From Bdellovibrionota bacterium (GTDB taxonomy: Bacteria > Bdellovibrionota > UBA1018 > CAIPTA01 > JAALKR01), in the NCBI GenBank assembly GCA_965207455.1, contig CBDBMJ010000003.1, forward strand, positions 281,838 to 345,837: a stretch of DNA of 64,000 bases. Reading direction: 5' to 3'. The notes under the pieces are model-generated. The model ran no database searches, was not told where the DNA came from, and worked only from the letters and a program-made list of their open reading frames with translations. Positions 1,274-16,467 of this stretch are shown here, in pieces. The translations under genes and the position numbers were made by a program. Every line of letters starts with the position of its first letter. The first letter of the stretch is position 1.

Positions 1274-2731
1274 TCAAAAAATTAAAAAGAGGCGAGCCTG
1301 TTTCAACAGTAATAATAGGAATTCTCCTCCCCAAAATCCCCATAATAACAGCGGAAGTAGGGCCAGAACCAAGGCTAGACGAGTAAGCGTGCCCTGTATG
1401 ACTGGATCTGCCCGGGGAGTGCTTGCTGGGGGATCTTCAAAGAAGAGAACTGCCACCAAACGTGCAAAAATCATAACCTGAACCAGCAAATATAGTAGAA
1501 ACAAGGAGAAAACCACGGGTTGACTCTGAGCAAAAATCGTTCCCAGCGCCTGGAGTGTGGAGAAAAAGCCCATCATGGGCGGCAACCCTGCCAAAGAAAT
1601 CAATACCAAGAGTAAAAGAAAGCAGAAATAGCTTCGACCCATGCCGCATAATTCCTCCATTTTTTCTTTCTTTTGTGACAAGCAAAGGCCCCCAAGTATC
1701 CAGAAATACAGCACTAAACCCATACTGATGCTAATAAATTGAATTACGATGGTGGAAAGAACCTGGGCATTAATGCTGCTCATCACAACCAAAAGGGAAG
1801 ACCACTGCATCAGGACTATATGGGCAGAAAAGCAGCGAATATTTTTTTGGGCCAGCGCACCAAAAGCCCCATAAAATAAACCACAAAAGCCACAAACCGT
1901 AAATCCCATTAAAATACTAAGCCCCATGGTGGATGCCTGAGTCTCCGTTTTCATAAAAAACAAAAAAATAACAATTTTGATCAGGGCCAAAACACCTGCC
2001 CCCTGGATCAATAACGACTGGATGGCCTGATCGAGCCAAGTGGAGTTCTGCCCCCTATTAATCCCAATAAAATGGAAGGGAAATAGGGCGCTCACACAGA
2101 AAAAGGGTAGGAACAGCATAAAGATAAGGGGAACCCCATACAGGCCGTTTAAGCCATGAATATAGTTTTTGATTTCCGTGTATGTCAAAGAGTCCAGTTG
2201 CGTGGATAGAATCACTAAGACAGCAAAGCTTAAGCAAAAGCAAACACTGGATTGAAGGTAGGACTGTGCGGATATTTTTCTCCCCTCCCTCCCAGACATG
2301 GCAGAAAGAAGAATAGAGAAAAGCATTAGGCCGGATAGGCAAATAAAAGAGACGAGTGCATGCTCAGATAGGAGTAATACAGAGGAGAAAAAAGCTATGT
2401 TGACAATAAAAAATGAAAATTCCGCTCCCTTGTTAAAGGAAAATTTTTCCGAATAGTGGGTGAAGAGCAATAATAATAAGGAAACCACAAAGAGTGTGAA
2501 GCGAACAAAGACAAATACGGGATTCAAGCCAATGGCAGAAGAAAATAAAGAGATATTTTCTGTCGGTTGATAATATAAGGTGCTGAAGGCTGCAAAAGAC
2601 ATTCCCAACAAAGATAGACCTCGAATGAAAGAACGAGACTTGCTCCCATCTCCAAATGCTAAAAAAAACAGGATCAGAAAGGATGAACCAAGGAGTGTTA
2701 TCTCAGGCAATATGGGCAGATAAAAAGACAC
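1274..2731 (-). CDS. nuoN: diverged NuoN-like antiporter subunit
   Basis: 485 aa polytopic; LPEI, FPFHF, GALAQKNIR, SLAGLPPMMGF; last gene after L-M-M. Confidence 0.8.
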   Translation of the reverse strand: MSFYLPILPEITLLGSSFLILFFLAFGDGSKSRSFIRGLSLLGMSFAAFSTLYYQPTENISLFSSAIGLNPVFVFVRFTLFVVSLLLLLFTHYSEKFSFNKGAEFSFFIVNIAFFSSVLLLSEHALVSFICLSGLMLFSILLSAMSGREGRKISAQSYLQSSVCFCLSFAVLVILSTQLDSLTYTEIKNYIHGLNGLYGVPLIFMLFLPFFCVSALFPFHFIGINRGQNSTWLDQAIQSLLIQGAGVLALIKIVIFLFFMKTETQASTMGLSILMGFTVCGFCGLFYGAFGALAQKNIRCFSAHIVLMQWSSLLVVMSSINAQVLSTIVIQFISISMGLVLYFWILGGLCLSQKKEKMEELCGMGRSYFCFLLLLVLISLAGLPPMMGFFSTLQALGTIFAQSQPVVFSLFLLYLLVQVMIFARLVAVLFFEDPPASTPRADPVIQGTLTRLALVLALLPLLLWGFWGGEFLLLLLKQARLFLIF

Positions 2732-4147
2732 CTATCCCCCTCCTAAAAGATTTAATGCTTCACTCACAGCATAGGAAAAATAACGGGATAATAATCGAGG
2801 ATAGATTGTGAGTAGAACTAGGCACCCACCCATGAAAAAACAACAAAGGGCATCCCAGGAGTGCAGGCGTAGTAAGGGCGCTCTCTCTTTTGCGTATTCT
2901 TCATGAAAAACCGGAGACAGGGAGCGGTAGCAAGAAACCACTAGGAGTAGTGCAAGGAACAAAACGATGGGGAAAACAAAGATCGTCTCCTTAGCTGTGA
3001 GCCCGTAAAAAATCAAGAGCGTGCTGTGGAATCCAAAGGAAACGGGAAGACAGAACGCAGCCAGCATAGTATAGACGGAAAACAATAATAATTTTGGATT
3101 ATTGGGCGCATTCCCTAAGTACCCATCCTTACTCCCTCGCTCACTGATATCTATTATGGTAAATATGGCGGCAAGGATAAGAAATAAAAATATTCCCATC
3201 ATCAAGGCTCCAACGAAGCCTTCTTTGTTTCCGGAGCTTATACCTAAAAATATAAGCCCACTGAAAATTTGTTGAAACAATACTATTTGATCTCTTAGAG
3301 AAGTGCACCGTAAAAGCAATAGCGCAGGCAGGAGCATGGACACTAAGCCCACTATAAAAAATAAAAATTGAAATTCCATAAACTCGTTGGAAAAATCAGG
3401 AAACAAAAAACGAAGAAATGCGTAGAGCCCGAAATTGTAAACAGTCATCACAGGCAATAGAAGAATTAAATTCTTTGCACTGGACAATCGTCTCAAAAGC
3501 CAGTGGAAAGGAATCATTTTTATAAAAAATACTCCAGAGAGGAGTGCAAAGATCAAATATTTCTTAGAGCCTACCTCAACAGCGGAGTAAAACTCTGGGT
3601 ATAGAATAAAAAAGCAGACAAGCAATAAAAAAATACTAATTGTACTTATGAGCATAAATGGTTTACTGAGGCGTTTTAACTCTGTAGATCCATCCGTACC
3701 AATTAAAAAAGTAGCGGGGACGATGCACAGGGCAGAAAAGAAAAGAAAGGAAAACAGGGTTGATGAGGCGTACATTCCTAAGACACCAAACTCCAGTAAC
3801 ATTAAAGAGATAATTTTACCTCCATTGAGTCTTTCTCGACCCACCAGCACCACCACCATAAATACAAGGCTAGTTACCCATAAAAAGGGTGAATTAAGAG
3901 CATCTGTCGCAAAGTTTGTATTAATATTCCAAAAACCGGACCAAGGGTACGCACCAACACCAGGTACTATTTTTTGTGTTACGGCAAGTGCCTCTAAAAA
4001 CATCCATGTATGAGTTAGAAATATAAATATTGTAGATAGTGCCACAGAAGACCACAGCCAGGAGTTCGCTTTATTCCAAAATAAAAAGCCAATAGCGGCA
4101 AGCGCTAGGGGTAAAAAGATAGTAATTTGTAAAAAAAACTCTGGCAT
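2732..4147 (-). CDS. nuoM: diverged NuoM-like subunit (second copy)
   Basis: PW...INTNFATDALNSPF, VPATFLIG, FFIKMIPFHWL, YAFLRF, CLPVSFGF; start at MPEFF (4147). Confidence 0.75.
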   Translation of the reverse strand: MPEFFLQITIFLPLALAAIGFLFWNKANSWLWSSVALSTIFIFLTHTWMFLEALAVTQKIVPGVGAYPWSGFWNINTNFATDALNSPFLWVTSLVFMVVVLVGRERLNGGKIISLMLLEFGVLGMYASSTLFSFLFFSALCIVPATFLIGTDGSTELKRLSKPFMLISTISIFLLLVCFFILYPEFYSAVEVGSKKYLIFALLSGVFFIKMIPFHWLLRRLSSAKNLILLLPVMTVYNFGLYAFLRFLFPDFSNEFMEFQFLFFIVGLVSMLLPALLLLRCTSLRDQIVLFQQIFSGLIFLGISSGNKEGFVGALMMGIFLFLILAAIFTIIDISERGSKDGYLGNAPNNPKLLLFSVYTMLAAFCLPVSFGFHSTLLIFYGLTAKETIFVFPIVLFLALLLVVSCYRSLSPVFHEEYAKERAPLLRLHSWDALCCFFMGGCLVLLTIYPRLLSRYFSYAVSEALNLLGGG

Positions 4148-4149
4148 AA

Positions 4150-5616
4150 TCAGTAAACAAAACCCAAGAGTCCCACACTCCCAAGCCAGGAAATCAAACA
4201 AAAGAAAAGGCAAAGTGTGGCTAGTTTATAGTTAGCCTGCCAAGCCTCTCCCTTACTGTTAGATTTACCCTGAACATCAATGTCCTTTCCAAATCCATGA
4301 TCGAAAAAAAATATTCTGTAACCGCAATAAGTGAGTATGGTAGAATACAATGTCCATAATAGGACTAGCAAAATAGAATGCTGAAGACTGGAATCAAAAA
4401 TTACAGCGCCGGGCAAGGCAAAAATATAATACACAGGAGTCCCGGGAATACTCACTAAAAAAACAAAGATGAGGAGAAATGTGGCTTTGTTGAGCGACCC
4501 TAGAAAATCATTATCGCATAAAAATCGAATGAAAACGGATAATACGGGAATGGTAATGCTGATTAAGTATACAGATTGAAAATTTTCCGGCGAAAAGAAG
4601 CCTATAGAATAAAAGGCCATCCCCAGAAAAAAAACAATAATGCTCCCCAAAGCTCTTTCTTTATATCCAGCTGCGCACAATAAATAACCGGAGAAAATTG
4701 CCATAAAAAATCCAAATATAGATATATTTCTCAAAAAAATCTGGCTCTCTTTGGGCAGGATAGAAACTATTTCATTAAAAATAAATAGAATGGCGCCCAT
4801 AAAGATACAAAATGGAATGGAAATGATAGAGGAAATTTTTTTCTCTTCTCTTTCTGAATTGAAAATACCCATAAACCACGCAGACCAAAAACACAGGGGA
4901 AGAGAGAGGGCAAATGCGCTCACTAGAAAAAGGATGGTCCACAAATCTCCATCGAACGTTGCACCAGAAAGCGGAGCAGAAAACACAGCTGCAAAAGAAC
5001 TAAAATTCAAGGAGCTCATTTCAAAAACAAAGGATAGGGACACCAAAGATAAGAGCATTACAATACCTCCAGAGATCTGAAGCAAAGCTGCCAACTCTCC
5101 ATGCATTTCCTTTTTTGCCTTGCCAGCATCCACCTTAATATCCTGACAATAAAACAAGCGCAACAGGAGAAACAAAACAATGCTAATAACTATGTGAAGT
5201 ATGGAAATTAAAAGTAAATTTTCACAAACCACGTAAAAACTAATCAGCCCTTTAAAAAAAATAAGTAGAGATATGGCTCCCACAGACACTTTTTGCTTTT
5301 TGTAATAGTCTTGGAACAAGAGGAATAATACCAGAAAACATGCGTCAAAAATAAGAAGTAAGAAGGCATTCCTTGAGGTCAATGCCACCTCCCAAGCTAT
5401 TCCCATCATGGGTAAAAATGGGGCAGAGTCTCTCAAAGGGGCACCTCCCTGTAATAAATGAGAAAGAAAGAAAATCAAAATAAGGCAAGAGAAGAAACTG
5501 GTAAATACACCGCACAGAGCATTCCACCGGTGCCCATAAAAAAATATATACTGAGCACTCCCAACGATTAAGGGTGCTAGCAAAAATATCCAAAAAAGCG
5601 GTATATATAATTCCAT
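4150..5616 (-). CDS. highly diverged NuoM-like subunit (first copy)
   Basis: 488 aa polytopic; PFLPMMGIAWEVAL, LFLVSAFALSLPL..W, SIPGTP; position between L and M. Confidence 0.6.
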   Translation of the reverse strand: MELYIPLFWIFLLAPLIVGSAQYIFFYGHRWNALCGVFTSFFSCLILIFFLSHLLQGGAPLRDSAPFLPMMGIAWEVALTSRNAFLLLIFDACFLVLFLLFQDYYKKQKVSVGAISLLIFFKGLISFYVVCENLLLISILHIVISIVLFLLLRLFYCQDIKVDAGKAKKEMHGELAALLQISGGIVMLLSLVSLSFVFEMSSLNFSSFAAVFSAPLSGATFDGDLWTILFLVSAFALSLPLCFWSAWFMGIFNSEREEKKISSIISIPFCIFMGAILFIFNEIVSILPKESQIFLRNISIFGFFMAIFSGYLLCAAGYKERALGSIIVFFLGMAFYSIGFFSPENFQSVYLISITIPVLSVFIRFLCDNDFLGSLNKATFLLIFVFLVSIPGTPVYYIFALPGAVIFDSSLQHSILLVLLWTLYSTILTYCGYRIFFFDHGFGKDIDVQGKSNSKGEAWQANYKLATLCLFFCLISWLGSVGLLGFVY

Positions 5617-5620
5617 TTCT

Positions 5621-7402
5621 CTATCCCGTTAGTATCAGTAGTACAACCATAGTCAAAATAAAAAAAACAGAGAAAAATAAATATGCTCTAGCAGCGCTAT
5701 TTTGCACGCGTTGGACAAAATGAGATAAAGAGTGAGCAAGAACGGCGCTGCCATTCAAGAGAACATTCATAATAACTGTTCCATCCAGACAGTTTATTTT
5801 TTTAGATACAAAATCCAAAAAAACCAATATTTTTTTTTGAGAAGCGGTCAAAATACTGGATTGTATATGGAAAACAAAAATATTGACTTTATCTAAAATA
5901 TTATACATATAGGGTACTCCCTCCGATTCAAGGATCTCCCTTTTTCTTGAAAGATAAAGAGAAAACTTTTGACTTTTAGCTAGCCCTCCCCCTAGGAAAA
6001 AACCAATCACGGTCAGGAACACTATGGATGCAGCGGTATATAACATAATACTGGACGACTCTCCTGTCATAGTGGGCAAAATTCCATTCGTTCCCGAATA
6101 GACCCACTCCAATAAAGTTCCTCTCATCAAAGGCTCATTGCCCACTAAGAGAATGAAAATACCCAAATATACGCTAATGTCCTTAGATGGTATCTGCCTA
6201 TCTATCTTCCAAAACTCCTCGTCATCTCCAGTCGTGAGCAAGAGCCTAGAGAATACACCTGTAAGCAATAACGATTGGAGGCACAGGAGAATAAACAGAG
6301 CCAAGTCCACTGACCCTATCCTATTGAAAAACAAAAATAATGCTGAACCCGGAAATCCTACAATAATTAAATGGGCAATGCTGGCCACAAGTAGTGGGAT
6401 TTTCCTCTGAGCACCTCGCAGCTTCACATTAGATAAAGTTAAACAGATACATTGCAGGGATAGTAAAACAAGACAAATAGCGAAAGCTATATTAATGGCA
6501 TTATCAGGTGAAAAATGGATTAAAAAAATAAGATTTAAGGACAGGACGGACAGAATATAATTTTTAATGGAATGGGTTCCTTTACTAGCTAGGAGCGCAC
6601 GCACAGCACAGAAGATAGAAAATATAGCTAGTAGATAACTATACACACCCAGATAAATATCATCCAGACCTGTGCCAATGGCTTTCCTCTGTAAAGCAAA
6701 ACAAGCTAAAAACAGGAGAACTTGGGGAAGATGATCAAACCAAGAAATATATTTCGAGCGAAAGGAAATTACTGTAATAATGTATAGTAATAATCCTCCG
6801 TTCATAAAATTCCAGATGGAAAATATCTCTTCAAAGGAAAGTATAAAAACTAAAAAAATAACTAAAAAAACAAATATTTTTTGCTTGAAGAAATCAAGCA
6901 TCTCCACCCCATGAGACATTTTTCCCTCAGCTCTCATACCAAGAAAATAAGCTAGAAATATTAGCAACTCCACGAATACTAAAACAGGCACCATCGTTGT
7001 GATAAGAATGGATAGGTTACTAAAAATAAATAAACATAATAATACGGGAAACCGAGATACTCTGTTTTTCTCTTTATAAAAATCAGGGAATGCCAATGTG
7101 CCAAAAAATAAAAGGAGAGAACTTCCTAAAATCCAACACACACTTTCCTCATTCAGTAAAAACTGGAGTTCAAATTGCGAAGGAATTTTCAAAAAATTCA
7201 AGGAAAGGGCGAGGGGAGAAAAAAAAGAATCCACCCCCATCAAGGCAATGGCACTGACTAGAATAGGTATAAGAAAAACCATCAAGGAAAGGTAGTAAGA
7301 ACTAAGCCATGACGCTCTGTTGGGAAAGAAAACCATAGTAATTCCATAGATCGCCGGTACGATAATGGACGCGCCAAAGATAAAATAATGAATTAGACTC
7401 AT
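5621..7402 (-). CDS. nuoL: diverged NuoL-like subunit
   Basis: 593 aa; YKEKNRVSRF, IVGFPGSALF, C-terminal LDGTVI..LNG...RVQNSAARAYL matches the NuoL lateral helix/TM16. Confidence 0.7.
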   Translation of the reverse strand: MSLIHYFIFGASIIVPAIYGITMVFFPNRASWLSSYYLSLMVFLIPILVSAIALMGVDSFFSPLALSLNFLKIPSQFELQFLLNEESVCWILGSSLLLFFGTLAFPDFYKEKNRVSRFPVLLCLFIFSNLSILITTMVPVLVFVELLIFLAYFLGMRAEGKMSHGVEMLDFFKQKIFVFLVIFLVFILSFEEIFSIWNFMNGGLLLYIITVISFRSKYISWFDHLPQVLLFLACFALQRKAIGTGLDDIYLGVYSYLLAIFSIFCAVRALLASKGTHSIKNYILSVLSLNLIFLIHFSPDNAINIAFAICLVLLSLQCICLTLSNVKLRGAQRKIPLLVASIAHLIIVGFPGSALFLFFNRIGSVDLALFILLCLQSLLLTGVFSRLLLTTGDDEEFWKIDRQIPSKDISVYLGIFILLVGNEPLMRGTLLEWVYSGTNGILPTMTGESSSIMLYTAASIVFLTVIGFFLGGGLAKSQKFSLYLSRKREILESEGVPYMYNILDKVNIFVFHIQSSILTASQKKILVFLDFVSKKINCLDGTVIMNVLLNGSAVLAHSLSHFVQRVQNSAARAYLFFSVFFILTMVVLLILTG

Positions 7403-7419
7403 ACTCCTAGCACCTCAGA

Positions 7420-7710
7420 CTATCCCTCTTTTCCATGATCTGTTTCTCTATCTCTTGTCATCAAAGACAGACTTGCTATAAAAAATAAAATACAGAAAAA
7501 GATACCCACAAAAACTAAAATGGAAAGCATTTTAATTTTTTCTGGAAACATGGTTAACCATATGATAGCTGCGTATGCGCAGGCTTTGAGAGAAATAATT
7601 TGACCCAGAACGATAGAAATAAATGCCTGCCTTGCCATCATCATTCCCAGACCAATGCAAAAAATTCCCGCTGCAATGATAAGATGAATTTTCAAAAATA
7701 ATAGATCCAT
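7420..7710 (-). CDS. nuoK: diverged NuoK-like subunit
   Basis: ~96 aa, 3 TM, AAGIFCIGLGMMMAR; gene order J-K-L. Confidence 0.7.
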   Translation of the reverse strand: MDLLFLKIHLIIAAGIFCIGLGMMMARQAFISIVLGQIISLKACAYAAIIWLTMFPEKIKMLSILVFVGIFFCILFFIASLSLMTRDRETDHGKEG

Positions 7711-7718
7711 ACCACCTA

Positions 7719-8210
7719 TCAATCTTTAGAGCCAACAGTGGCAAGCGCGCCTATGGAAGCCGGTGCAACAATGAACATACAGAGAAGAATAAATTTCCAG
7801 TTTTCTCCCAAAAAAGAATTTTCCGAATATGCCAAAACACTTCCAGATGCCGTATCTATTTCAGGAATACTCATTCCATTCCAAGCACCCCATACCACTA
7901 AACACCCGATAAAAGAAACAAAGCACATCATGACTACTAGATAGAATCGCTCCCAACCTTCGATTTTTATCTTATTTTCTGGCAGCAAATTTGTGGAGAA
8001 TATAAAGAATAATAAAATCAAATCTAAGATTAAAAAAATTGGTGTTACCCAGAGCAGGATACTTACTTTTAATAAAAAATAAGCTAGCAATGATATATTG
8101 CATGTTAGGATAGCAGAAGAGATAAGTACTGCAGATTTAGATGGTGAAAATGCCATTGCTAGAGCAACCACAATCGCCACAACACCAAATAGTATGAGAA
8201 TAACCTGCAT
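7719..8210 (-). CDS. nuoJ: diverged NuoJ-like subunit
   Basis: 163 aa, 5 TM, C-terminal ASIGALA; gene order I-J-K. Confidence 0.65.
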   Translation of the reverse strand: MQVILILFGVVAIVVALAMAFSPSKSAVLISSAILTCNISLLAYFLLKVSILLWVTPIFLILDLILLFFIFSTNLLPENKIKIEGWERFYLVVMMCFVSFIGCLVVWGAWNGMSIPEIDTASGSVLAYSENSFLGENWKFILLCMFIVAPASIGALATVGSKD

Positions 8211-8215
8211 TTTCC

Positions 8216-8707
8216 CTATCTCCTTATCTCGTAATAACGAATCAATTGTTTTTTCTTCTTTTGATAGGACTTATCTGTAACCATTCCTGAAAAATTAAAA
8301 ACAAGACCAGAGCGATAAAAAGCGCCTATTTCATAATCATTAGTATGAACGATACTTTTCACAGGGCATATATCCACGCAAATGGAGCAAAAAACGCATT
8401 TTCCAAAATCTATCCAAAAATCATTTACTTTCATAGAGCCGTCCATCTTAATTCCAGAATCCATGCCAATGGCTTGCGACGGACATGCCTGTACGCATTC
8501 ATTGCAACCAGTACATACCTGAAGATCATTTTGTAATAGCCCCCTTGCCCTAGAGTTCGGGCCCTTAAACATTTGCAAGGAGGAAACTTCTGGGTAGGCT
8601 TCTGTGAAGCGCTGGAATTTTGCCTTCCTAGAAAAAGTGTATGGCAATAATGACAAAACAGCAGTCCATATTTCTCTTATCTTATAGATTATATTAGATT
8701 TCTCCAT
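8216..8707 (-). CDS. nuoI: NuoI-like 2x[4Fe-4S] subunit
   Basis: TEAYPE, RARG, CTGCNECVQACP, IDFGKCVFCSICVDICP; RBS GAGGAGG before MEKSN. Confidence 0.9.
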   Translation of the reverse strand: MEKSNIIYKIREIWTAVLSLLPYTFSRKAKFQRFTEAYPEVSSLQMFKGPNSRARGLLQNDLQVCTGCNECVQACPSQAIGMDSGIKMDGSMKVNDFWIDFGKCVFCSICVDICPVKSIVHTNDYEIGAFYRSGLVFNFSGMVTDKSYQKKKKQLIRYYEIRR

Positions 8708-8714
8708 ATCCTCC

Positions 8715-9602
8715 TCAAGCACCCAAGTAAAAAACAAGCCAAAAAAGTTCTCCCACAAAAGCTAAAAAAATAGCTGGCAAAATTTTCTTAAATCCAAACT
8801 CCCATGCATCTTTTGTTCTCATAAAGGGAAAGGAATTTTGTATCCACAGGAACGCAAACAATGTACTCACTAAAACCAGGAAGAAAACGGAAAGTCCCTT
8901 TATGGTATATATGGGGAAAATAATATTAATATGTAAAATGACAAGCAGGGCAGCAAGATTAATTATCCACAGGATAGTGGATAGATGATAAATCCCATCC
9001 CACATCCCATTAAATTTCCTTCCGCTGCCATCGATGAACGGGGAAGAGGGAACAATAAAAAATAAAGAAAGAAACCCACATAGAAAAGACAAAACGCTAA
9101 ACGGACTAAAAATTACTTCATTGCTTTTATTATTCAAGTACAGCAAGGCCGGAAGCGTGGAAGGAATATACAAAGCTATACCAAATACACGAGATAAACC
9201 CAATCGTTGTGAGAAAATAAAAACATCTTTATTTTTAAAATAAAACAAAAACAAACTATCTATCATAATTGCAAAAAGTAAAATAGAATACAAAGATAGG
9301 ACTTTCTCATAGAGCAGGCGAGCTTCCTGCGTAAAGGAAAATAAGATAAAGCAGAATAAATAGGGCAGTGCAAGCCCCAGGAAAATGGCAAAAATAAAGA
9401 AAATACTTTCTTTTCCTCTCGTCTCTGCTCGTCTTTTGCTCATTTGTTTTATAAAATCTAGCAATACTTGATAAGTGCCTCCAAAACCCGATCTACTAAT
9501 TCCAATTCTCTGCTGCGTTTTTGCTGCCAGACCTCGCTCCATGGATAAATACAAATAGGCTGCCATATTGAGTGCTAAAAATAAAAAGAAAATAAAACTC
9601 AT
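8715..9602 (-). CDS. nuoH: diverged, shortened NuoH-like subunit
   Basis: MERGLAAKTQQRIG, QVLLDFIKQMSK, WIQNSFPFMR..D, FGFKKILP. Confidence 0.75.
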   Translation of the reverse strand: MSFIFFLFLALNMAAYLYLSMERGLAAKTQQRIGISRSGFGGTYQVLLDFIKQMSKRRAETRGKESIFFIFAIFLGLALPYLFCFILFSFTQEARLLYEKVLSLYSILLFAIMIDSLFLFYFKNKDVFIFSQRLGLSRVFGIALYIPSTLPALLYLNNKSNEVIFSPFSVLSFLCGFLSLFFIVPSSPFIDGSGRKFNGMWDGIYHLSTILWIINLAALLVILHINIIFPIYTIKGLSVFFLVLVSTLFAFLWIQNSFPFMRTKDAWEFGFKKILPAIFLAFVGELFWLVFYLGA

Positions 9603-9604
9603 TA

Positions 9605-10699
9605 CTACCGCTCCACCTCAGACATGGAAATATCAAAATTATGAATAATTAGAGGAGCATCTTCCAGCGCTTCCTTTAATAACACTTGAGGCAAAAACTT
9701 CAGCATAAAAAAAGAAGGTGTAGAAAATTTCACACGAGCTGGCTTACTGGACCCATCACTAGAAACAAATACACCCAAAGCTCCTCTGGCACTCTCCACC
9801 TCTGCATAAGCACCCCCACGAGGAGGGCAAAAATCCATGCCAATGGAAACGAAAAAATTCCCTGGCGGTATTCGACTAGCCCCTTGCCGGATGATGGCTA
9901 TGCTCTGCTGGATTTCCCGAAACCTATAGAGAAAGCGATCAAAACAATCCCCATCCTGTTTCTTAGTCCAGTGGATGGGCACAAAAAGATCGGAGTACGC
10001 TGCGTAGGTTTTTGCCTTTCTAATGTCTAACTCTCCTCCTGAGCATCGAGCGTTTGCGCCGGTAATACCATGTTCTTTTACTTTCTCTGGAGACAAAATA
10101 GCTAAACCGGTTAATCTCTCATAAAAAATAGGATTTTTTACTAAAATATTATCTAATTCTAATAGAAAAGACTCCGTATCACACAAGGTCTTTTCTATTC
10201 TATGTAAAAGACCTTCACTCATATTATTCCTAACTCCACCAATACAAATGGAGCCAAATGGAATTCTAGAACCACAATACATCTCAAATATATCTAAATA
10301 CTTCTCTCTTTCTCTTAAGCTAAAATGATGTATGTTTTTTGAACCAACACAGAGAGAGACCTGAGAAATATAGTTCAAGTGACTAACAATCCTGCTCAAT
10401 TCCAATAATATAACTCGAATAAAATCTGCCTTCAACGGCACTCGTATGCCTCCCAGCTTCTCCACAGCTAGAGCAAAAGCAAGATTGCAGGCTGGAGCAG
10501 ATAAATAATCCACTTTATCAGAATAAACAAGGCCCACCATATAGGGCACTTTTTCAAAGCACTGTTCGATTCCTCGATGACAATACCCCAGATCAATCTC
10601 GGCACTTTGGATCAACTGCCCATTCACCTGTGTTTTTAGCACAAATGGTCCAACTGTACTGGAACTCTGTTTTATTCCTGGTATGATATTTATTTCCAC
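9605..10699 (-). CDS. nuoD: diverged NuoD-like subunit
   Basis: GYCHRGIE, DKVDY, RVILLELSRIVSHL, GDCFDRF, VESARG, PARVKFSTPSF, EVER; no NiFe CxxC motifs. Confidence 0.9.
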   Translation of the reverse strand: MEINIIPGIKQSSSTVGPFVLKTQVNGQLIQSAEIDLGYCHRGIEQCFEKVPYMVGLVYSDKVDYLSAPACNLAFALAVEKLGGIRVPLKADFIRVILLELSRIVSHLNYISQVSLCVGSKNIHHFSLREREKYLDIFEMYCGSRIPFGSICIGGVRNNMSEGLLHRIEKTLCDTESFLLELDNILVKNPIFYERLTGLAILSPEKVKEHGITGANARCSGGELDIRKAKTYAAYSDLFVPIHWTKKQDGDCFDRFLYRFREIQQSIAIIRQGASRIPPGNFFVSIGMDFCPPRGGAYAEVESARGALGVFVSSDGSSKPARVKFSTPSFFMLKFLPQVLLKEALEDAPLIIHNFDISMSEVER

Positions 10700-10701
10700 A
10701 A

Positions 10702-11106
10702 CTAAGGCAAGTCCTCTCTCAATAAAAACGGCTGAGGATGGAGCATATCTTTAAATTTCACCTTAAACATTTCCCGTATCTCCCGTTCAAACCAATTTGC
10801 AATCGGCCACACTTTCTCCACGCTGGAAATAGATTTTGTGTTTGGAACACTAGTACATACACTTAAATAATTATCCCAAAGGGAGGAACTCAACCCTGTA
10901 ATTATTAAAGTTTTGGAGTCACTTTCCTTCATCGCTGTCAAAAAACACAAACGATGAAATAGAAGCTTTTCTTCTTTATATAAGAGCTCCAATGATTGCA
11001 CCCAATCCTTATCATCCACATCTATGATTATATGCTGATTCTCTTCACGAATATTCCAAGCACTGTTTGCTTGCTGGAGTTCTTTAATTAGATCTGCTTG
11101 CTTCAT
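10702..11106 (-). CDS. nuoC: diverged NuoC-like subunit
   Basis: SVEKVWPIANWFEREIREMFKVKF...HP. Confidence 0.85.
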   Translation of the reverse strand: MKQADLIKELQQANSAWNIREENQHIIIDVDDKDWVQSLELLYKEEKLLFHRLCFLTAMKESDSKTLIITGLSSSLWDNYLSVCTSVPNTKSISSVEKVWPIANWFEREIREMFKVKFKDMLHPQPFLLREDLP

Positions 11107-11560
11107 CTAGCTTACGCCCCATAAAAATTTTCTTTTGTAATGCGTGTATCCCGTGGATTAGGGCTTCTGGCTTCGGTGGACACCCAGGAATATAAACATC
11201 CACGGGCAAAATAAGATCCACCCCGTTTATTACTGTGTCGCTATGAACAGAAAAAATTCCTCCTGTATTAGCACAGCTTCCCATGGAAATTACATATTTA
11301 GGTTCCAACATTCCATGGTATAGTTCTTGGACTTTTCTCGAAATAGCTTTAGTAATAGGGCCAGCCACAATTAAAAGATCCGCGTTTCTATAATCATCTT
11401 GTGGCAAAAGGCCAAATCGCTCCAAATCATAACGAGGTCCTGTGCTTGCTGTAAACTCCAAGGCGCAACAAGATAAACTGAGAGGAAAGGCCCAGAGAGA
11501 CCGGCCATGCACTTTTGAAAAAATCTTTGATGTATTAGAAAGAAAAAGATCCGTTTTCAT
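11084..11560 (-). CDS. nuoB: diverged NuoB-like subunit (N2 cluster ligands present)
   Basis: [35 protein letters not shown]; ATGA overlap with upstream gene. Confidence 0.9.
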   Translation of the reverse strand: MKTDLFLSNTSKIFSKVHGRSLWAFPLSLSCCALEFTASTGPRYDLERFGLLPQDDYRNADLLIVAGPITKAISRKVQELYHGMLEPKYVISMGSCANTGGIFSVHSDTVINGVDLILPVDVYIPGCPPKPEALIHGIHALQKKIFMGRKLDEASRSN

Positions 11561-11934
11561 TTTTGCAACCAATGAATACTCATGATCCAGTTCAAAAATT
11601 TTCTCCTAGATCCATAAGCAAAAATCAAACCCAAGAGAACTGGCCCCAATACTATTTTTATTAATGTCAAAGTGGAATCTTCAACTCTTAGTGATAAATA
11701 ATTCTGAAAGCTTAGGGCCATGGGAACGATAAAAATAAGACATGCCCAGGTGATTAAAACATAGATAAGAAAATAAATATCCTGCGGAGCTTCTCCATGG
11801 TTTCGAGCCTTCTGGAAGCGAGGTGAACGATAAAAATAGCCTAAGGGGCTGGAAAGGGAATAGGTGGCAACGGCTACGATCAAAAGAACGAATAACGCAA
11901 ATAGTAAAAAACCAGAATCTATGAAAACTTGCAT
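11557..11934 (-). CDS. highly diverged NuoA-like 3-TM subunit
   Basis: ~125 aa, 3 TM, C-terminal AYGSRRKFLNW resembles YxWRxGxLxW; first gene before nuoB-like. Confidence 0.6.
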   Translation of the reverse strand: MQVFIDSGFLLFALFVLLIVAVATYSLSSPLGYFYRSPRFQKARNHGEAPQDIYFLIYVLITWACLIFIVPMALSFQNYLSLRVEDSTLTLIKIVLGPVLLGLIFAYGSRRKFLNWIMSIHWLQK

Positions 11935-12064
11935 ACTTACAGCGTATGCAGGTTGTGCTATAGAGTCAACCGCCAGCAAGAGCTCACCTTGTTTCTTTCC
12001 CACAAATATCCTATATGTGAAAGAGGAAGAACAAAGCATAGCTTGAGATTACGCGGAGCATTGA

Positions 12065-15000
12065 ATGGACTTTTTTTTACCCAGTTTTACTAACAGCCAT
12101 CAATGGATCAAAAGCAAGCAAACAATTATTATTTCTGGCCTATATGGATCTAGCCAAGCCCTCGTTTTAGCCCAACTTTTAGCAAAGGAAAAAAGGAATT
12201 ATTTAATTGTTTGCGATAAATCTAGTACTGCCCATACTTTGGTTCAAGAACTCCACACCTGTTTAACTTTTTTTCCAAACACTGTCCAAGTTTTATTATT
12301 TCCTAGCTGGGAAATTTCTCCCTATAGCAAACTTGCACCCAATCCCACCAATCGCTTGCAACGTTTGCGTTGCTTAAATGCTTTACACTCTTCCAGCAAA
12401 AAGTCCGTAGCTGTGATTGCTCCCATTCAAGCCATTACTCAACCCACACTTAGTCCTACGAGTTATAAGAAAAGAATTATTCCCTTACAGCCGGGAAGCG
12501 TGTACGAAATTCCATCTCTTGAGGAAAAACTTCAAGCCCTAGGCTATACCCAAGCGGATCTAGTAGAGGATCCGGGCACCTATGCAATACGAGGTGGAAT
12601 TATGGACATCTATTCCTGCGTGGAACCCTACCCCATTCGACTAGATTTTATGGACAATGAAATAGAGAGTATTCGCCTCTTTAATCCCATAAGCCAACGA
12701 AGTCAGGAAAAATCTTTCTTGAACATTGCTCATATTGGACCCACCAGAGAAATAGAATTATTCCCAGAAGAAGTGGAAACAGCAAGATCAAAAATACGAG
12801 CTTGGTGCGATCAAAACCATATATCCAGAGCCAATCGGGAACGACTCAATAATCAACTTAAAGAAAATATTATAACCCCAGAAATGGATTTCCTCATCCC
12901 GTTCTTTAGTAAAACTCCGGGCTATCTATGGGAATACTTTTCCAGCGACTCTTTGTGGACCTGGGTATCTGCCGACGATGTAAGAGTGCGCTTGCTGGAA
13001 AGACAGGAGAAATTAAAACTGGAATATGAGATGGCACTTACAGAACAGTCAATTATAGCGCCCAATGAAGAAATTTCCCTAGATTATGCTTCTCTTGTGG
13101 AAGCCAGTAAAAAATTTCAAAATCTCCGCCTAGAACCTCTAGACATACGAAGTAAAGAAGAAGCACAAAGAATCCATTTGAAAATCACACCTAATAATAA
13201 GGTACGTGGAATAACAAAAAGAAATAAAACGGAGAGTGCAGATTTCGACAAAGTAACAGAATATATAGAGGAGTTGCTAGAGCTAAACTATAGCATCTTT
13301 TTTATGGCAAACTCAAAATCCCAATTGGATAGACTTTCCTTCCTTTTAGCGCAAAAGGGCATACCAAACAAACAACTAAGCCCCAAAGAAATGCCTCAGA
13401 AAAAAATGCTAACCATGGTTTTGGGTACCTTAGAATCTGGATTCCAAATGGATGTAGACAGGGTGGTGTGCCTCACTGAGGATGAAATTTTTGGAGCAAA
13501 AAAACATTCGGAAAAACAGCGCACTCGCCCGAAAGATTTCTTCTCCAAGCACCTTGCCAAAACGAGCTTAGATAATTTATTTAAAGATGACTTTCTAGTT
13601 CACATAGAACACGGCATCGGCAAATACAAAGGACTCATTAAATTAATTACTAGCGGCATTCCAGGAGACTATGTCCATATAGAATATGCCGGAAAAGACA
13701 GGCTCTATCTCCCCATATATAGATTAGAACAAATACAAAAATATATCGGGCCTGCGGATTCTCGCCCACCAGTAAATAAATTAGGCTCCCAGCATTTTGT
13801 GAAAGCAAAAAGTAAAGCAAAGGCAGCAGTAAAAGATATTGCAGCCTCTTTATTAAAACTCTATGCCCAACGAGCTTCCGTATCCGGATATGCCTTCCCT
13901 GAACCGGACGATGAATACAAAAAATTTGAAGCCTGTTTCCCCTACGATGAAACCCCAGATCAACTGCAAGCAATTGAAGAAACAATTAAAGATATGTGCA
14001 CACCTAAACCCATGGATCGATTAATCTGTGGAGACGTGGGCTATGGGAAGACAGAAGTGGCAATGCGAGCTGCTTTTTTAGCTGCCTATTCAGGAAAACA
14101 AGTGGTCATTCTAGTTCCAACCACTATTTTAGCTGAGCAACACCTGTATAATTTCAAAATAAGATTCCAATCAATCCCCTTTGTTATAGAATCTCTTTCT
14201 CGATTTAAAAAACAAAAGGAACAAAAAGTAATTCTAGAGCAACTAAAAAATAAAAAAATAGATATTATAATTGGCACCCATCGCCTACTTTCAAAAGATG
14301 TTGCCTTCAAAGATTTAGGTCTACTGGTTATTGATGAAGAACAACGTTTTGGTGTGGAAAATAAAGAAAGACTCAAAAAATTTCGCCTCTCTGCTGATGT
14401 GCTAACTCTCACAGCAACACCCATACCCAGAACCCTACACCTTTCACTGGTTGGTATGCGAGATATTAGTATTATCCACACCCCACCCGCAGAACGTCAA
14501 TCCATCCGAACTTACCTTGCTGAGTTTGATAAAGAAATAATTAAAAAAGCCATTATTTTCGAGTTGAGCCGAGGAGGGCAAGTTTTCTTTATTCACAACA
14601 GAATACAATCCATGCCCATCATTCTAAATGCATTAAAAGAAATATTGCCAAAAATTAAGATAGCTGTAGCTAACGGAACTTTGCCTGAAACTCAACTAGA
14701 AAAAATAATGACCGGCTTTTATAAAAAAGAATTCGACGTACTCCTATCCACCGCTATTGTCGAAAATGGACTCGATATACCCAATGCTAATACCATTATT
14801 GTGAATCGAGCTGATGCTTTTGGCTTGTCACAGCTCTACCAAATCCGAGGACGAGTGGGTCGGTCGAAAAATCGAGCCTATGCCTACCTATTAACCCCTA
14901 AAGATATTACTCCTAGTGCAAGAAATAGGTTGCAAACTCTCCAACAACATACTGCTTTAGGTAGCAGCTTTTCCATTTCCTCCCGAGATTTAGAGCTTCG

Positions 15001-15568
15001 AGGTTCTGGGGATATTGTTGGCGGGGCTCAGTCGGGCCATGTAACCTCTATCGGTTACGATATGTATATTGAACTTTTAAACGACGAAATTAGCTCTCTC
15101 AAGGGAGAGGAAAAGGAGTCCAAAGAAAACATTGAGATCAACTCATCTTTTCCTGCTTATTTTCCTGAAGAATACATCTCAAGCCCATCTTTACGACTCT
15201 CCACTTATAAACAACTCTCCAGCCTGAACCGATTAGAGGAAATAGAAGAAGGTAAGAAAGAACTGGAAGATCGCTACGGAACTCTTCCCCAAACGGCACT
15301 GGGCTTGCTATGGTTATTAAAAACAAAAATAATATTGCAAAACGCTGGATTTCAAGGTCTGAATATCGGCAAAGAGGTACTTACACTGAAAGCAGGTAAA
15401 GAACCCAAGATAGATACCCATAAGCTATTAGATCTCATCGCAAGGAGGCCCAAGGAGTTTAATCTACAGTCCGAATCTAAATTGATCATTCGAAAAAAGA
15501 CAGAAGATTTGGAATCTGGCTTCAACACAGTGCAGCACCTCTTGCATACCATCGCCATAAACCCTTGA
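12065..15568 (+). CDS. mfd: transcription-repair coupling factor
   Basis: UvrB-like N-term RGGIMDI, CarD HIEHGIGKY, GDVGYGKTE, DEEQRFG, TATPIPRT, QIRGRVGR, TRCF C-term. Confidence 0.98.
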   Translation: MDFFLPSFTNSHQWIKSKQTIIISGLYGSSQALVLAQLLAKEKRNYLIVCDKSSTAHTLVQELHTCLTFFPNTVQVLLFPSWEISPYSKLAPNPTNRLQRLRCLNALHSSSKKSVAVIAPIQAITQPTLSPTSYKKRIIPLQPGSVYEIPSLEEKLQALGYTQADLVEDPGTYAIRGGIMDIYSCVEPYPIRLDFMDNEIESIRLFNPISQRSQEKSFLNIAHIGPTREIELFPEEVETARSKIRAWCDQNHISRANRERLNNQLKENIITPEMDFLIPFFSKTPGYLWEYFSSDSLWTWVSADDVRVRLLERQEKLKLEYEMALTEQSIIAPNEEISLDYASLVEASKKFQNLRLEPLDIRSKEEAQRIHLKITPNNKVRGITKRNKTESADFDKVTEYIEELLELNYSIFFMANSKSQLDRLSFLLAQKGIPNKQLSPKEMPQKKMLTMVLGTLESGFQMDVDRVVCLTEDEIFGAKKHSEKQRTRPKDFFSKHLAKTSLDNLFKDDFLVHIEHGIGKYKGLIKLITSGIPGDYVHIEYAGKDRLYLPIYRLEQIQKYIGPADSRPPVNKLGSQHFVKAKSKAKAAVKDIAASLLKLYAQRASVSGYAFPEPDDEYKKFEACFPYDETPDQLQAIEETIKDMCTPKPMDRLICGDVGYGKTEVAMRAAFLAAYSGKQVVILVPTTILAEQHLYNFKIRFQSIPFVIESLSRFKKQKEQKVILEQLKNKKIDIIIGTHRLLSKDVAFKDLGLLVIDEEQRFGVENKERLKKFRLSADVLTLTATPIPRTLHLSLVGMRDISIIHTPPAERQSIRTYLAEFDKEIIKKAIIFELSRGGQVFFIHNRIQSMPIILNALKEILPKIKIAVANGTLPETQLEKIMTGFYKKEFDVLLSTAIVENGLDIPNANTIIVNRADAFGLSQLYQIRGRVGRSKNRAYAYLLTPKDITPSARNRLQTLQQHTALGSSFSISSRDLELRGSGDIVGGAQSGHVTSIGYDMYIELLNDEISSLKGEEKESKENIEINSSFPAYFPEEYISSPSLRLSTYKQLSSLNRLEEIEEGKKELEDRYGTLPQTALGLLWLLKTKIILQNAGFQGLNIGKEVLTLKAGKEPKIDTHKLLDLIARRPKEFNLQSESKLIIRKKTEDLESGFNTVQHLLHTIAINP

Positions 15569-15636
15569 CCTCAACACATTATCCAGCGACAATTAAATCA
15601 GTAGAAAACGCTATTTATTGCAAGCTAGGAGGACTC

Positions 15637-16467
15637 ATGAACTATTCACTTATTATACTATTTATTTCCACACTCGCCATTCTCTCTCCTGTACAAGTCC
15701 AGGCAAGGATGAGTCGAAACACAGTGGCCATTATCGATGGTGCTCCCCTAAGTAAAAAGGAATTTGATCGTCGGTATCTTGAAAATATTAAAAATTTCAA
15801 ATTCGTCACACCAACGAAATCCGTTATTTTAAACGACATTGTAAATTTCGAGCTAGGCCTAAAGGAAGCCAAACGACTGGGGCTCCATAAAAGAGCTTCT
15901 GTGCAAGAGAGAATGAATTATGTGTTATACGAGTCTTTAATCAAAGAAGTGCTGGGCAAGCGAATCAATAATATTCAAGTCTCAGACAAGGAAGTGCTCT
16001 CCTTTTGTAAAAGATTTCCAGAACTGCGCACCAGCCACATCTATATTCCCCTGACAATAACCCCTTTAAGTGTAGAAAAAAGGGAAGCCCGAAAAAAAGC
16101 CTCCCAAGCCTTACGCAATATCAAAAGCGGCATGTCTTTTAAAGACGCTGTTTCCAAATACTCCACTGGATACGCGGTTCCCGTTGGCGGAGATATCGGC
16201 TACCAAATGAAGGACAGACTGGATCCGGCTTATTATGCTGCCGCTCGAAAACTGAAGGTGGGACAATACACGAAAAAAGCAATACGAAGCCAATTTGGTC
16301 TCCATATCATAAAACTAATAGAGAAAAAGCCTTGTAAAAGGGTAAATATGGCCGAGTGGAAGCGCATGATTTATGACGAAAAACGCTCTAAAATTCAGAG
16401 ACGCTACCTAGCTAAGCTACGATCCAAGGCTAAGGTAGAAATAAATCATCAATTAGTGAAAAAATAG
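15637..16467 (+). CDS. exported PpiC/parvulin-type peptidylprolyl isomerase
   Basis: signal peptide, SHIYI, GGDIGY, RSQFGLHIIK; AGGAGG RBS before 15637. Confidence 0.85.
   Translation: MNYSLIILFISTLAILSPVQVQARMSRNTVAIIDGAPLSKKEFDRRYLENIKNFKFVTPTKSVILNDIVNFELGLKEAKRLGLHKRASVQERMNYVLYESLIKEVLGKRINNIQVSDKEVLSFCKRFPELRTSHIYIPLTITPLSVEKREARKKASQALRNIKSGMSFKDAVSKYSTGYAVPVGGDIGYQMKDRLDPAYYAAARKLKVGQYTKKAIRSQFGLHIIKLIEKKPCKRVNMAEWKRMIYDEKRSKIQRRYLAKLRSKAKVEINHQLVKK

Follow-up and report, generated by a model that had tools for sequence, protein, structure and literature searches.

This report concerns a second complex I-like operon in a genome of the Bdellovibrionota (G000; NCBI assembly GCA_965207455.1), located in a stretch of 64 000 nucleotides from contig CBDBMJ010000003.1 (positions 281 838–345 837, forward strand). 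The whole of this stretch is referred to below as the window, and positions are those of the window unless another locus is named. Twelve head-to-tail open reading frames (ORFs), coding for 100–593 amino acids, occupy its minus strand in the order nuoA-B-C-D-H-I-J-K-L-M-M-N; the first starts at position 12039 or, more probably, at 11934, and the last ends at position 1274. We call this operon op2 and its subunits A2 to N2 (the two M-type subunits are Ma2 and Mb2), and use op1 for the canonical 14-gene nuo operon of the same genome, with subunits A1 to N1; the iron–sulphur cluster of the same name as one of the subunits is always written as cluster N2. The products of op2 are preserved by selection, as shown below, in a form from which the residues of the canonical proton pump have disappeared. 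When the longest ORFs are used, gaps and overlaps between neighbouring genes do not exceed 64 nt, and the longest ORF in the other reading frames of the region is only 121 amino acids. D2 is directly followed by H2: no NuoE, NuoF or NuoG gene was found between them, either in the ORF list or in the Pfam and NCBIfam searches of op2. The genome, which is 94.7% complete and amounts to 2.38 Mb in 3 contigs, contains two NuoD genes and a single NuoF match, which belongs to op1. The original prediction, made from the DNA sequence alone, had described twelve packed or overlapping ORFs in complex I order that lack the NADH module, and both points are borne out by these searches together with the profile alignments (hhalign) given below.

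Four of the op2 products, all from the peripheral arm, are clearly recognised by Pfam and NCBIfam. B2 (11084–11572, minus strand like the other eleven genes) is NuoB-like (PF01058, 93.4 bits; NCBIfam NuoB, 182.9 bits for a cut-off of 116) and has the ligands of cluster N2: the tandem Cys, the Cys of GSC and the Cys of PGCPP are all present in the window, and the four Cys are found in 7 of 8 orthologues. C2 (10702–11106) is a short NuoC-like protein (134 amino acids, 192 for C1; PF00329, 63.4 bits) without the C-terminal part of canonical NuoC. I2 (8216–8707; the longest ORF starts at 8758) is a NuoI-like ferredoxin subunit with two clusters (Fer4 families; NCBIfam NuoI, 79.6 bits), and both of its four-Cys motifs, i.e. 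the 8 Cys that are the ligands of clusters N6a and N6b, are found in 8/8 orthologues. I2 also carries a basic C-terminal tail (8216–8260) ending in a nearly invariant motif of five residues; this tail is conserved in the 12-gene operons and absent from I1. D2 (9605–10699) is NuoD-like (PF00346, 204.8 bits), and its nearest solved relative is Nqo4 of Thermus thermophilus (E = 5.3e-65, 223 bits). Two other assignments were considered for it and rejected. A hydrogenase is excluded by the lack of Cys pairs at the N- and C-terminal positions of the NiFe ligands, and an Fpo-type subunit by an NCBIfam score that is higher for the NuoD family than for FpoD. Group 4 [NiFe] hydrogenases, MBS and FHL share distant homology with op2 in B, D, H, I and the antiporter-like subunits; unlike them, op2 has a Nuo-type gene order and no NiFe Cys pairs, and D2 scores 105 bits with MBH and 97 bits with FHL, against 223 with Nqo4.

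The membrane arm is far less easily recognised. H2 (8715–9602; 295 amino acids, 365 for H1) gives a weak match (PF00146, 50.7 bits). Mb2 (2732–4213; PF00361, 27.7 bits; NCBIfam NDH_I_M, 81.6 bits, below the cut-off of that model) and N2 (1274–2731; PF00361, 29.0 bits) barely pass. Across the whole genome PF00361 gave three strong matches, of 287, 255 and 241 bits; two others were weak, at 30.8 and 29.6 bits. The other five products, A2 (11557–11934), J2 (7719–8210), K2 (7420–7722), L2 (5621–7402; 593 amino acids) and Ma2 (4150–5616), have no Pfam match at E ≤ 1e-3. NCBIfam found nothing for J2, K2, L2 and Ma2, and for A2 only a NuoA-type match at E = 0.088. The A2 coordinates given here assume that translation probably starts at the ATG at 11934, which gives a protein of 125 amino acids, similar in length to the orthologues (125–143 amino acids); the longest ORF, up to 12039, would code for 160. 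Since five of the twelve proteins escape Pfam and NCBIfam is nearly blank for the same five, automatic annotation will probably fail to place them in an operon of the complex I type.

Alignments of profiles, some of them chained, connected these proteins to complex I. An important link in these chains is an 11-gene operon with one M gene only (A-B-C-D-H-I-J-K-L-M-N), which was found in three other families of the same class and is discussed further below. With hhalign, N2 matched the N of the 11-gene form with a probability of 99.9% and canonical N with 99.4–99.9%; Mb2 matched canonical M (99.7–100%) and H2 canonical H (98–99%), and N2 and Mb2 aligned over their full length with NuoN and NuoM, of which we consider them orthologues. 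L2 matched the L of the 11-gene form (95.4%, 119 columns), which itself matched canonical L (98.0%); the direct match of L2 to canonical L was 2.8%. Similarly, A2, J2 and K2 matched their 11-gene counterparts (78.6, 88.2 and 89.5%, respectively), for which the matches to canonical subunits were 97.7% (A), 96.0% (J) and 97.4% (K). The best match of Ma2 was the M of the 11-gene form (96.3%), that to Mb2 being 80.8%. A2, J2, K2, L2 and Ma2 are thus tied to complex I by profile chains that pass through the 11-gene form. Two NuoM-like genes had been predicted from the sequence: Mb2 is clearly one, whereas Ma2 is an extra antiporter-like subunit that is only weakly M-like.

Structure prediction is consistent with these assignments. 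The AlphaFold2 model of L2 was obtained from an alignment of 24 sequences (predicted local distance difference test (pLDDT) 76.8; predicted template modelling score (pTM) 0.76). It contains a helix of 72 residues (497–568), comparable to the long lateral helix of NuoL, followed by a terminal membrane helix (571–592) that would act as a C-terminal anchor. In Foldseek, nearly all of the matches listed for this model were chain L, ND5 or NdhF of complex I or NDH-1 (template modelling score 0.52–0.62, full-length, 11–16% identity). When the L2 profile was searched against 1.84 billion representatives, 36 proteins were recovered at E ≤ 1e-3; they have at most 603 amino acids, and none reaches the length of the canonical NuoL of this genome (650 amino acids) or of the L of the 11-gene form (634–662 amino acids). 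The proposed kinship of L2 and NuoL comes down to two lines of evidence, the profile chains and the predicted fold. For Ma2, a profile search of the protein database for wider relatives returned the protein of the window alone, so that it was folded on 8 sequences (pLDDT 68.3). The resulting model resembles NuoL, NuoM, NdhD/F and Mrp chains (template modelling score 0.57–0.71), and the protein-atlas features of Ma2 place it with PF00361 clusters at 0.93.

The operon op1 lies on the same strand and begins 49 bp downstream of N2 (spacer 1225–1273, read directly from the sequence). The window contains its start: A1 (862–1224), B1 (393–908) and C1 (1–396, which runs off the window), with Pfam scores of 113.6, 92.6 and 53.8 bits. 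What had been noted as a canonical nuoABC next door is the beginning of a complete nuoA-B-C-D-E-F-G-H-I-J-K-L-M-N operon, NuoE, NuoF and NuoG included.

Homologues of op2 were sought by several routes. All twelve ORFs are open in 8 species-level genomes (G000, G001, G002, G003, G004, G007, G008 and G010), which belong to a single order of the Bdellovibrionota. A ninth genome (G005) has 11 visible ORFs, A2 lying past the end of the contig, and two more (G006 and G009) have fragments, that of G006 stopping at a contig end. Searching with conserved D2 peptides gave 21 loci: 8 are of the D2 type, 1 (L039) has the operon upstream of the D1 that was matched, and 12 are canonical NuoD loci from other phyla, nearer to D1 than to D2. 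The phylum was then screened, in 401 genomes, with a D2 profile built from five of them (G000, G002, G003, G008 and G010). Scores of 425–629 bits were obtained solely in the order of the window (G000–G003, G005 and G007–G009; 10 genomes of the order were examined), and the next best score among the 401 genomes was 344 bits. One genome of the order, G004, scored low, and there the L2 profile found a full-length ORF of the L2 type (583 amino acids). This genome has other peculiarities: the best identity of its D2 with any other D2 is 29% (with G002), its C2 is only 90 amino acids long (L096 6984–7256) and its canonical NuoC and NuoD are fused in one ORF of 597 amino acids (L096 17348–19141).

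In the 8 genomes, which represent two families, the 12 ORFs keep their lengths at only 17–45% identity to the window; identity is 30% or less for 7 of the 8 membrane subunits. The preservation of the reading frames that had been proposed for the window thus holds for its relatives, with one exception. This sole break is in the L2 of G009 (L095 8177–9404). The canonical NuoD (D1) of the same contig is broken too (1260–2498) and the genome is in 630 contigs, and therefore an assembly error is the likely cause. The downstream flank of op2 is conserved as well: canonical nuoA is found 17–162 bp past N2 (longest ORFs) in all ten 12-gene loci whose downstream flank is visible and, if the five 11-gene loci are added, the tandem arrangement with op1 is seen in 15 of 15. 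The copy in the window is no outlier among its orthologues, since it departs alone from columns that are otherwise invariant 51 times and that of G001 does so 56 times. We conclude that op2 is real, vertically inherited and specific to one order of Bdellovibrionota.

Selection on op2 was assessed with the Nei–Gojobori method (NG86) on the closest pair of genomes (G005 and G010), ten op2 genes being compared with ten op1 genes; A2 was unavailable in this pair and K2 was excluded because its longest ORFs over-extend into J2. Non-synonymous divergence (dN) in op2 was 0.10 for I2, 0.16 for B2, 0.22 for D2, 0.24 for H2, 0.30 for N2, 0.32 for Mb2, 0.33 for Ma2, 0.34 for J2, 0.45 for L2 and 0.74 for C2 (the C2 value must be taken with caution as the C2 ORFs over-extend at their start). 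In op1 it was 0.03 for B1, 0.05 for I1 and D1, 0.07 for F1 and 0.10 for H1, and the range was 0.03–0.10 save for C1 and J1 (about 0.25). Amino-acid change in op2 is therefore 2–6 times that of op1 in the same pair of genomes. The slowest subunits of op2 are B2, D2 and I2, and the fastest is C2 (34% identity where D2 has 74%). For every gene of both operons, synonymous divergence (dS) either exceeded 1.5 or could not be computed, so that dN/dS is bounded rather than measured; where NG86 gave a number, C2 had about 0.4, and D2, J2, L2, Ma2, Mb2 and N2 had 0.06–0.15. Because dN falls far short of the saturation of neutral silent sites, op2 must be under purifying selection, and the data show that it is kept in this way while evolving several times faster than op1. 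The same contrast in rate is apparent over a longer distance within one family. Between G000 and G001, op1 subunits are 76 (D), 77 (F), 69 (H), 62 (L), 61 (M) and 56% (N) identical, versus 44 (D), 33 (H), 21 (L), 24 (Ma), 30 (Mb) and 30% (N) for op2. Both the strong divergence of the membrane subunits relative to the canonical ones and their retention by selection had been anticipated by the original prediction, and the signs of decay that it named, i.e. dN/dS near 1 and frameshifted orthologues in relatives, were not seen apart from the case of G009.

These results bear directly on the idea that op2 is the slowly decaying relic of a duplicated or acquired operon which has not yet acquired stops. 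Its extreme divergence, the 5 of 12 proteins that lack a Pfam match, the dN of C2 in the closest pair and the break in the L2 of G009 are all features that such a relic could display. However, twelve open and length-conserved ORFs in 8 genomes of two families, at so low an identity, are difficult to reconcile with decay, as is a dN far below the saturated dS, and the break itself is probably an assembly error. We consider this reading largely refuted and give it very little credence.

Work on complex I regards the chain of Lys and Glu residues in the antiporter-like subunits, the Glu of NuoK and a loop of NuoH as the conserved proton-pumping engine. The fate of these elements was followed at charged columns, defined as those where at least 90% of 8–10 canonical sequences, including the subunits of the same genome, have the same charged residue. 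The canonical subunits of G000 keep all the pump residues of the antiporter-like subunits. In N2, the Glu of transmembrane helix (TM) 5 and the Lys of TM7, TM8 and TM12 are replaced in 8/8 orthologues; a global profile alignment agrees, as do, at the positions that could be checked, the printed alignments to NuoN of M. smegmatis and to cyanobacterial NdhB. In Mb2, the TM5 Glu, the TM8 Lys and the TM12 Glu are replaced in 8/8; only the copy in the window still has the TM7 Lys, two other orthologues having Arg. Ma2 keeps no pump residue, and among the 20 residues that are invariant in it there is not one Lys, Glu, Asp or His. For L2, the columns of the MAFFT alignment with canonical L are unreliable (no residue faces the TM5 Glu), and losses were therefore judged on invariant residues, independently of that alignment. 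The invariants among the 24 members are P16, E145, Y207 and Y574, with no Lys, His or Asp. In the chained profile alignment, E145 is at most one position away from the TM5 Glu and is probably its equivalent, which would make it the sole pump residue of L2. By the same alignment-free criterion, there is no invariant Lys in L2 (24 sequences), Ma2, Mb2 or N2, and the hydrophobic stretches contain at most two polar invariants per antiporter-like subunit.

The remaining membrane subunits are altered too. Both canonical membrane Glu are absent from K2, and likewise from the K of the 11-gene form. A2 lacks the canonical loop and the acidic TM2 motif, and J2 has lost the canonical TM3 motif, a membrane Asp (D63) being invariant there in 7/7 sequences. 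H2 retains the conserved N-terminal region and is devoid of the TM5–TM6 loop.

It could be argued that op2 still translocates ions and conserves energy by means of other residues, another ion or another route. Purifying selection acts on the membrane arm in its entirety, one antiporter-like subunit was gained rather than lost, and there are invariant polar residues in membrane segments: E145 and Y207 of L2 in 24/24 sequences, D63 of J2 and, in Ma2, N133 and R153 in 8/8. On the other hand, no antiporter-like subunit has an invariant Lys, the polar invariants are too few in each subunit to form a continuous charged axis, and the NuoK Glu and the NuoH loop, through which the quinone site is connected with the arm, are gone. 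A pump of this kind seems improbable to us.

The 11-gene form provides a point of comparison for these losses. It lies directly upstream of canonical nuoA in 5/5 loci (G305, G015, G028, G022 and G314; L071–L074 and L079), i.e. at the same site as op2, and its single M as well as its H and N are nearer to the canonical subunits than are those of op2. With PF00361, canonical L scores 284 bits, while neither the 11-gene L nor L2 gives a match; for M the scores are 251 bits (canonical), 141 bits (11-gene), 27.7 bits (Mb2) and none (Ma2), and for N they are 239, 136 and 29.0 bits. With PF00146, the H of the 11-gene form scores 169 bits, like a canonical one, versus 50.7 bits for H2. In this form L, K and the quinone-site His are already degenerate, and M and N keep part of their pump residues (for N, the TM12 Lys in 3/5 sequences and the TM5 Glu in 2/5); degeneration is therefore stepwise. 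In place of the basic tail of I2, its I subunit has a longer charged one. In sequence space, the 11-gene form is an intermediate between op2 and the canonical operon. A literature search confined to the main texts of one library of papers found no description in print of a second operon of this type.

A maximum likelihood tree of 32 NuoD sequences was computed; it is unrooted (midpoint rooting was used for drawing only) and includes no hydrogenase outgroup. The eight NuoD of 12-gene operons form their own clade (support 100/99). Together with the five NuoD of 11-gene operons they are on one side of a branch of length 0.51 with 100/100 support, without the two sets forming a single supported clade. 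The other side holds every canonical NuoD, with those of these very genomes among them, as well as the sequences from short B-C-D-I clusters. From this split it follows that op2 is not a recent copy of op1. A recent tandem duplication of op1 was accordingly rejected as the origin of op2, D1 being grouped with canonical NuoD of other phyla and away from D2. Membership of a characterised clade with normal motifs, named initially as something that would refute the idea, is likewise not seen, D2 having its own clade and the pump and quinone motifs being abnormal on profile alignments.

Two side observations concern other loci. The short B-C-D-I clusters, with a second NuoD, occur in other classes of the phylum (L075, L077, L078 and L080, and as C-D-I in L076; genomes G225, G042, G045, G048 and G144), and none of the genes H, J, K, L, M and N could be recognised beside them; their NuoD is sister to the canonical clade and does not go with op2. 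They may correspond to the ‘split’ nuo arrangement of Bdellovibrio that is mentioned in passages of PMC4758237 and PMC13147790. In one 11-gene locus (L079, from G314, a genome in 5 contigs), the canonical operon looks broken between 12123 and 15970, with B1 cut to 110 amino acids and D1 and F1 each in two ORFs, while the upstream 11-gene operon is intact; the break could reflect either an assembly error or real decay.

How does op2 compare with described relatives of complex I? It has the gene order of canonical complex I (exemplified by T. thermophilus Nqo4, Nqo6, Nqo9 and Nqo12–14) minus nuoEFG, and shares with it the ligands of clusters N2, N6a and N6b and, according to the prediction for L2, the NuoL fold with its lateral helix. 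It differs in having no NADH module and an extra M-like subunit, and in the absence of the charged pump residues, of the NuoK Glu, of the NuoH TM5–6 loop and of the His and Asp of NuoD. Closer parallels exist for the gene content. Chadwick and colleagues reportedly described, in 2018, a 2M complex I of Nitrospirota and others that has tandem M genes and no NuoEFG in the cluster. These 2M complexes are said to pump more protons and to have a lengthened NuoL helix. In PMC12342949 they are presented as candidates for reverse electron transport. Like them, op2 has two tandem M-type genes (Ma2 weakly so), separate C and D genes and no NuoEFG in the cluster. Unlike them, if the features attributed to that class are taken as its criteria, it lacks pump residues in both M-like subunits, and L2 (593 amino acids) is shorter than L1 (650 amino acids) and than the L of one-M operons, so that its lateral helix has not been lengthened.

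Complex I-like enzymes with 11 subunits and no N module are also known; as a class they keep the quinone-site residues and pump. op2 resembles them in lacking NuoEFG, and its donor could similarly be something other than NADH. It is unlike them in that it has no dedicated donor-binding subunit and adjoins a full 14-subunit enzyme. The class comprises cyanobacterial NDH-1, Fpo-like enzymes and the Desulfitobacterium type (PMC3144371 and PMC11238625). The solved NDH-1 chains bear Glu or Lys at those pump positions of N2 that could be checked, and N2 of op2 does not. PMC4758237 defines NUO11 as an operon without nuoEFG in a genome without an N module, has a name also for operons in which a further M is added to the 11 subunits, and notes the ‘split’ nuo clusters of Bdellovibrio; op2 agrees with the definition of NUO11 at the level of the operon and departs from it at the level of the genome, E1, F1 and G1 being next to it. 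A 2026 paper on Peredibacter genomes (PMC13147790) reports several nuo clusters in Bdellovibrionota and, in the sections seen, makes no mention of a degenerate one.

Thus one could assign op2 to an ordinary class already described, either a 2M complex with increased pumping or a standard ferredoxin-dependent 11-subunit complex I. Its tandem M-like genes, the lack of NuoEFG and the name that PMC4758237 has, for another organism, for a set of 11 subunits with a further M would speak for this, as would the basic C-terminal tail of I2, which I1 does not have. But the missing pump residues of both M-like subunits, the shorter L2 with a lateral helix that is not extended, the separate NuoD clade and the NuoEFG genes adjoining op2 in the genome are at odds with either class, and we think such an assignment very unlikely. 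Our literature search, confined to the main texts of one library of papers, gave no description of a complex I homologue without a charged axis in all of its antiporter-like subunits.

The quinone site deserves separate consideration. The roles of the His of NuoD, of its Asp partner and of the Tyr next to cluster N2 are established in the complex I literature. The His and the Asp are named H38 and D139 in PMC4758237. In D2, the His of the N-terminal β1–β2 loop and its Asp partner are replaced in 8/8 orthologues, and the His is replaced in 5/5 NuoD of the 11-gene form as well. The Tyr is kept in 6/8, including the window, and is Phe in the other 2.

We propose, tentatively, that op2 encodes a selected complex I derivative, a redox complex that does not pump by the canonical route; among the readings weighed here it is the one we favour. 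According to this proposal the op2 proteins would still form an L-shaped particle in the membrane. A docking partner would supply I2 with electrons; it might be the only NuoEFG of the genome, whose genes follow directly in op1, or else a small carrier in solution, and the basic tail of I2 would suit an acidic one. The electrons would then pass along I2 to B2 and, at a pocket that has been remodelled, be handed to an acceptor in the membrane. This transfer would be uncoupled from proton pumping by the canonical route, and the membrane arm would be mainly a scaffold. The idea of a repurposed membrane Fe–S complex, already part of the original prediction, is plausible as far as the lost motifs go and is a reasonable inference from them.

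Several observations weigh against the redox complex just described. In one species (G002) B2 (L023 9175–9609, plus strand) has lost 3 of the 4 ligands of cluster N2, i.e. the tandem Cys pair and the PGCPP Cys, while I2 retains all 8 Cys; electron delivery to the pocket thus cannot be essential in every species. The quinone-site Tyr has become Phe in 2 of 8 D2, as said above. Searches of the genome (94.7% complete) for a 2-oxoacid:ferredoxin oxidoreductase (POR_N) and for a flavodoxin found none. The invariant polar residues within the membrane (E145 and Y207 of L2, D63 of J2, N133 and R153 of Ma2) leave room for a non-canonical ion path. The saturation of dS, which only allows dN/dS to be bounded, is a further point, and so is the fact that every genome examined is an uncultured metagenome-assembled genome, op2 being known here from its genes alone. 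Finally, twelve subunits are a costly route to uncoupled electron transfer.

Some of these observations would be accounted for if op2 encoded a pseudo-enzyme, which assembles without catalysing electron transfer and is of use as a scaffold, in the assembly of another complex or in its regulation, the complex I of op1 being an example. The B2 of G002 is well conserved apart from its ligands (71% identity to G007, above the 61% of D2); the His and Asp of the quinone site are gone in all eight D2 and the Tyr in two; the pump residues are lost; a 2-oxoacid oxidoreductase that reduces ferredoxin, and a flavodoxin, are missing from the genome as it stands; and op2 and op1 are in tandem in every one of the 15 loci. 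Nevertheless, the 8 Cys of I2 in all eight orthologues and the ligands of cluster N2 in seven of them are hard to explain without a redox role, and B2, D2 and I2 are precisely the slowest-evolving subunits of op2. A pseudo-enzyme is, in our estimation, rather unlikely, though it is the alternative to be taken most seriously.

Other features in the vicinity of op2 can be mentioned briefly. A scan for promoters and terminators reported no terminator-like site in the 49-bp spacer between N2 and canonical nuoA, and gave no enrichment over shuffled sequences. Upstream of op2 and divergent from it is a gene for an Mfd-type transcription-repair coupling factor (12065–15568, plus strand; 1167 amino acids), beyond which lies a gene for a peptidyl-prolyl isomerase of the SurA/PpiC type (15565–16467, plus strand; 300 amino acids); the gene upstream of op2 differs among relatives. 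On the side of op1, canonical NuoG is short in G000 (G000:C3:277244–278641; L090 7745–9142) and in relatives of the class (462–491 amino acids), with many invariant Cys. NuoG of Thermus and E. coli is several hundred residues longer.

In terms of its sequence, op2 might be described as a ‘hollowed-out’ complex I, in which the charged membrane axis and the quinone-protonating residues have been erased and which selection has preserved across an order; we advance this description as a possibility and with some reserve. If it is correct, the architecture of complex I serves here a function other than proton pumping. Two functions would be candidates: the remodelled NuoB/D/H pocket could host a redox chemistry that is new, or op2 could be a partner, in structure or in regulation, of the canonical enzyme whose genes begin 49 bp further on. 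The one-M relatives would capture a stepwise path to the hollowed-out state. The bearers of op2 are a natural lineage in which the conserved pumping engine is gone and the subunits, gene order and Fe–S ligands persist under selection. op2 is of high interest to specialists of complex I: should the description hold, op2 would provide a natural ‘pump-dead’ control for models of coupling, the series from the canonical through the 11-gene to the 12-gene form would show which parts are lost first, and the complex I scaffold may prove to have a new function.

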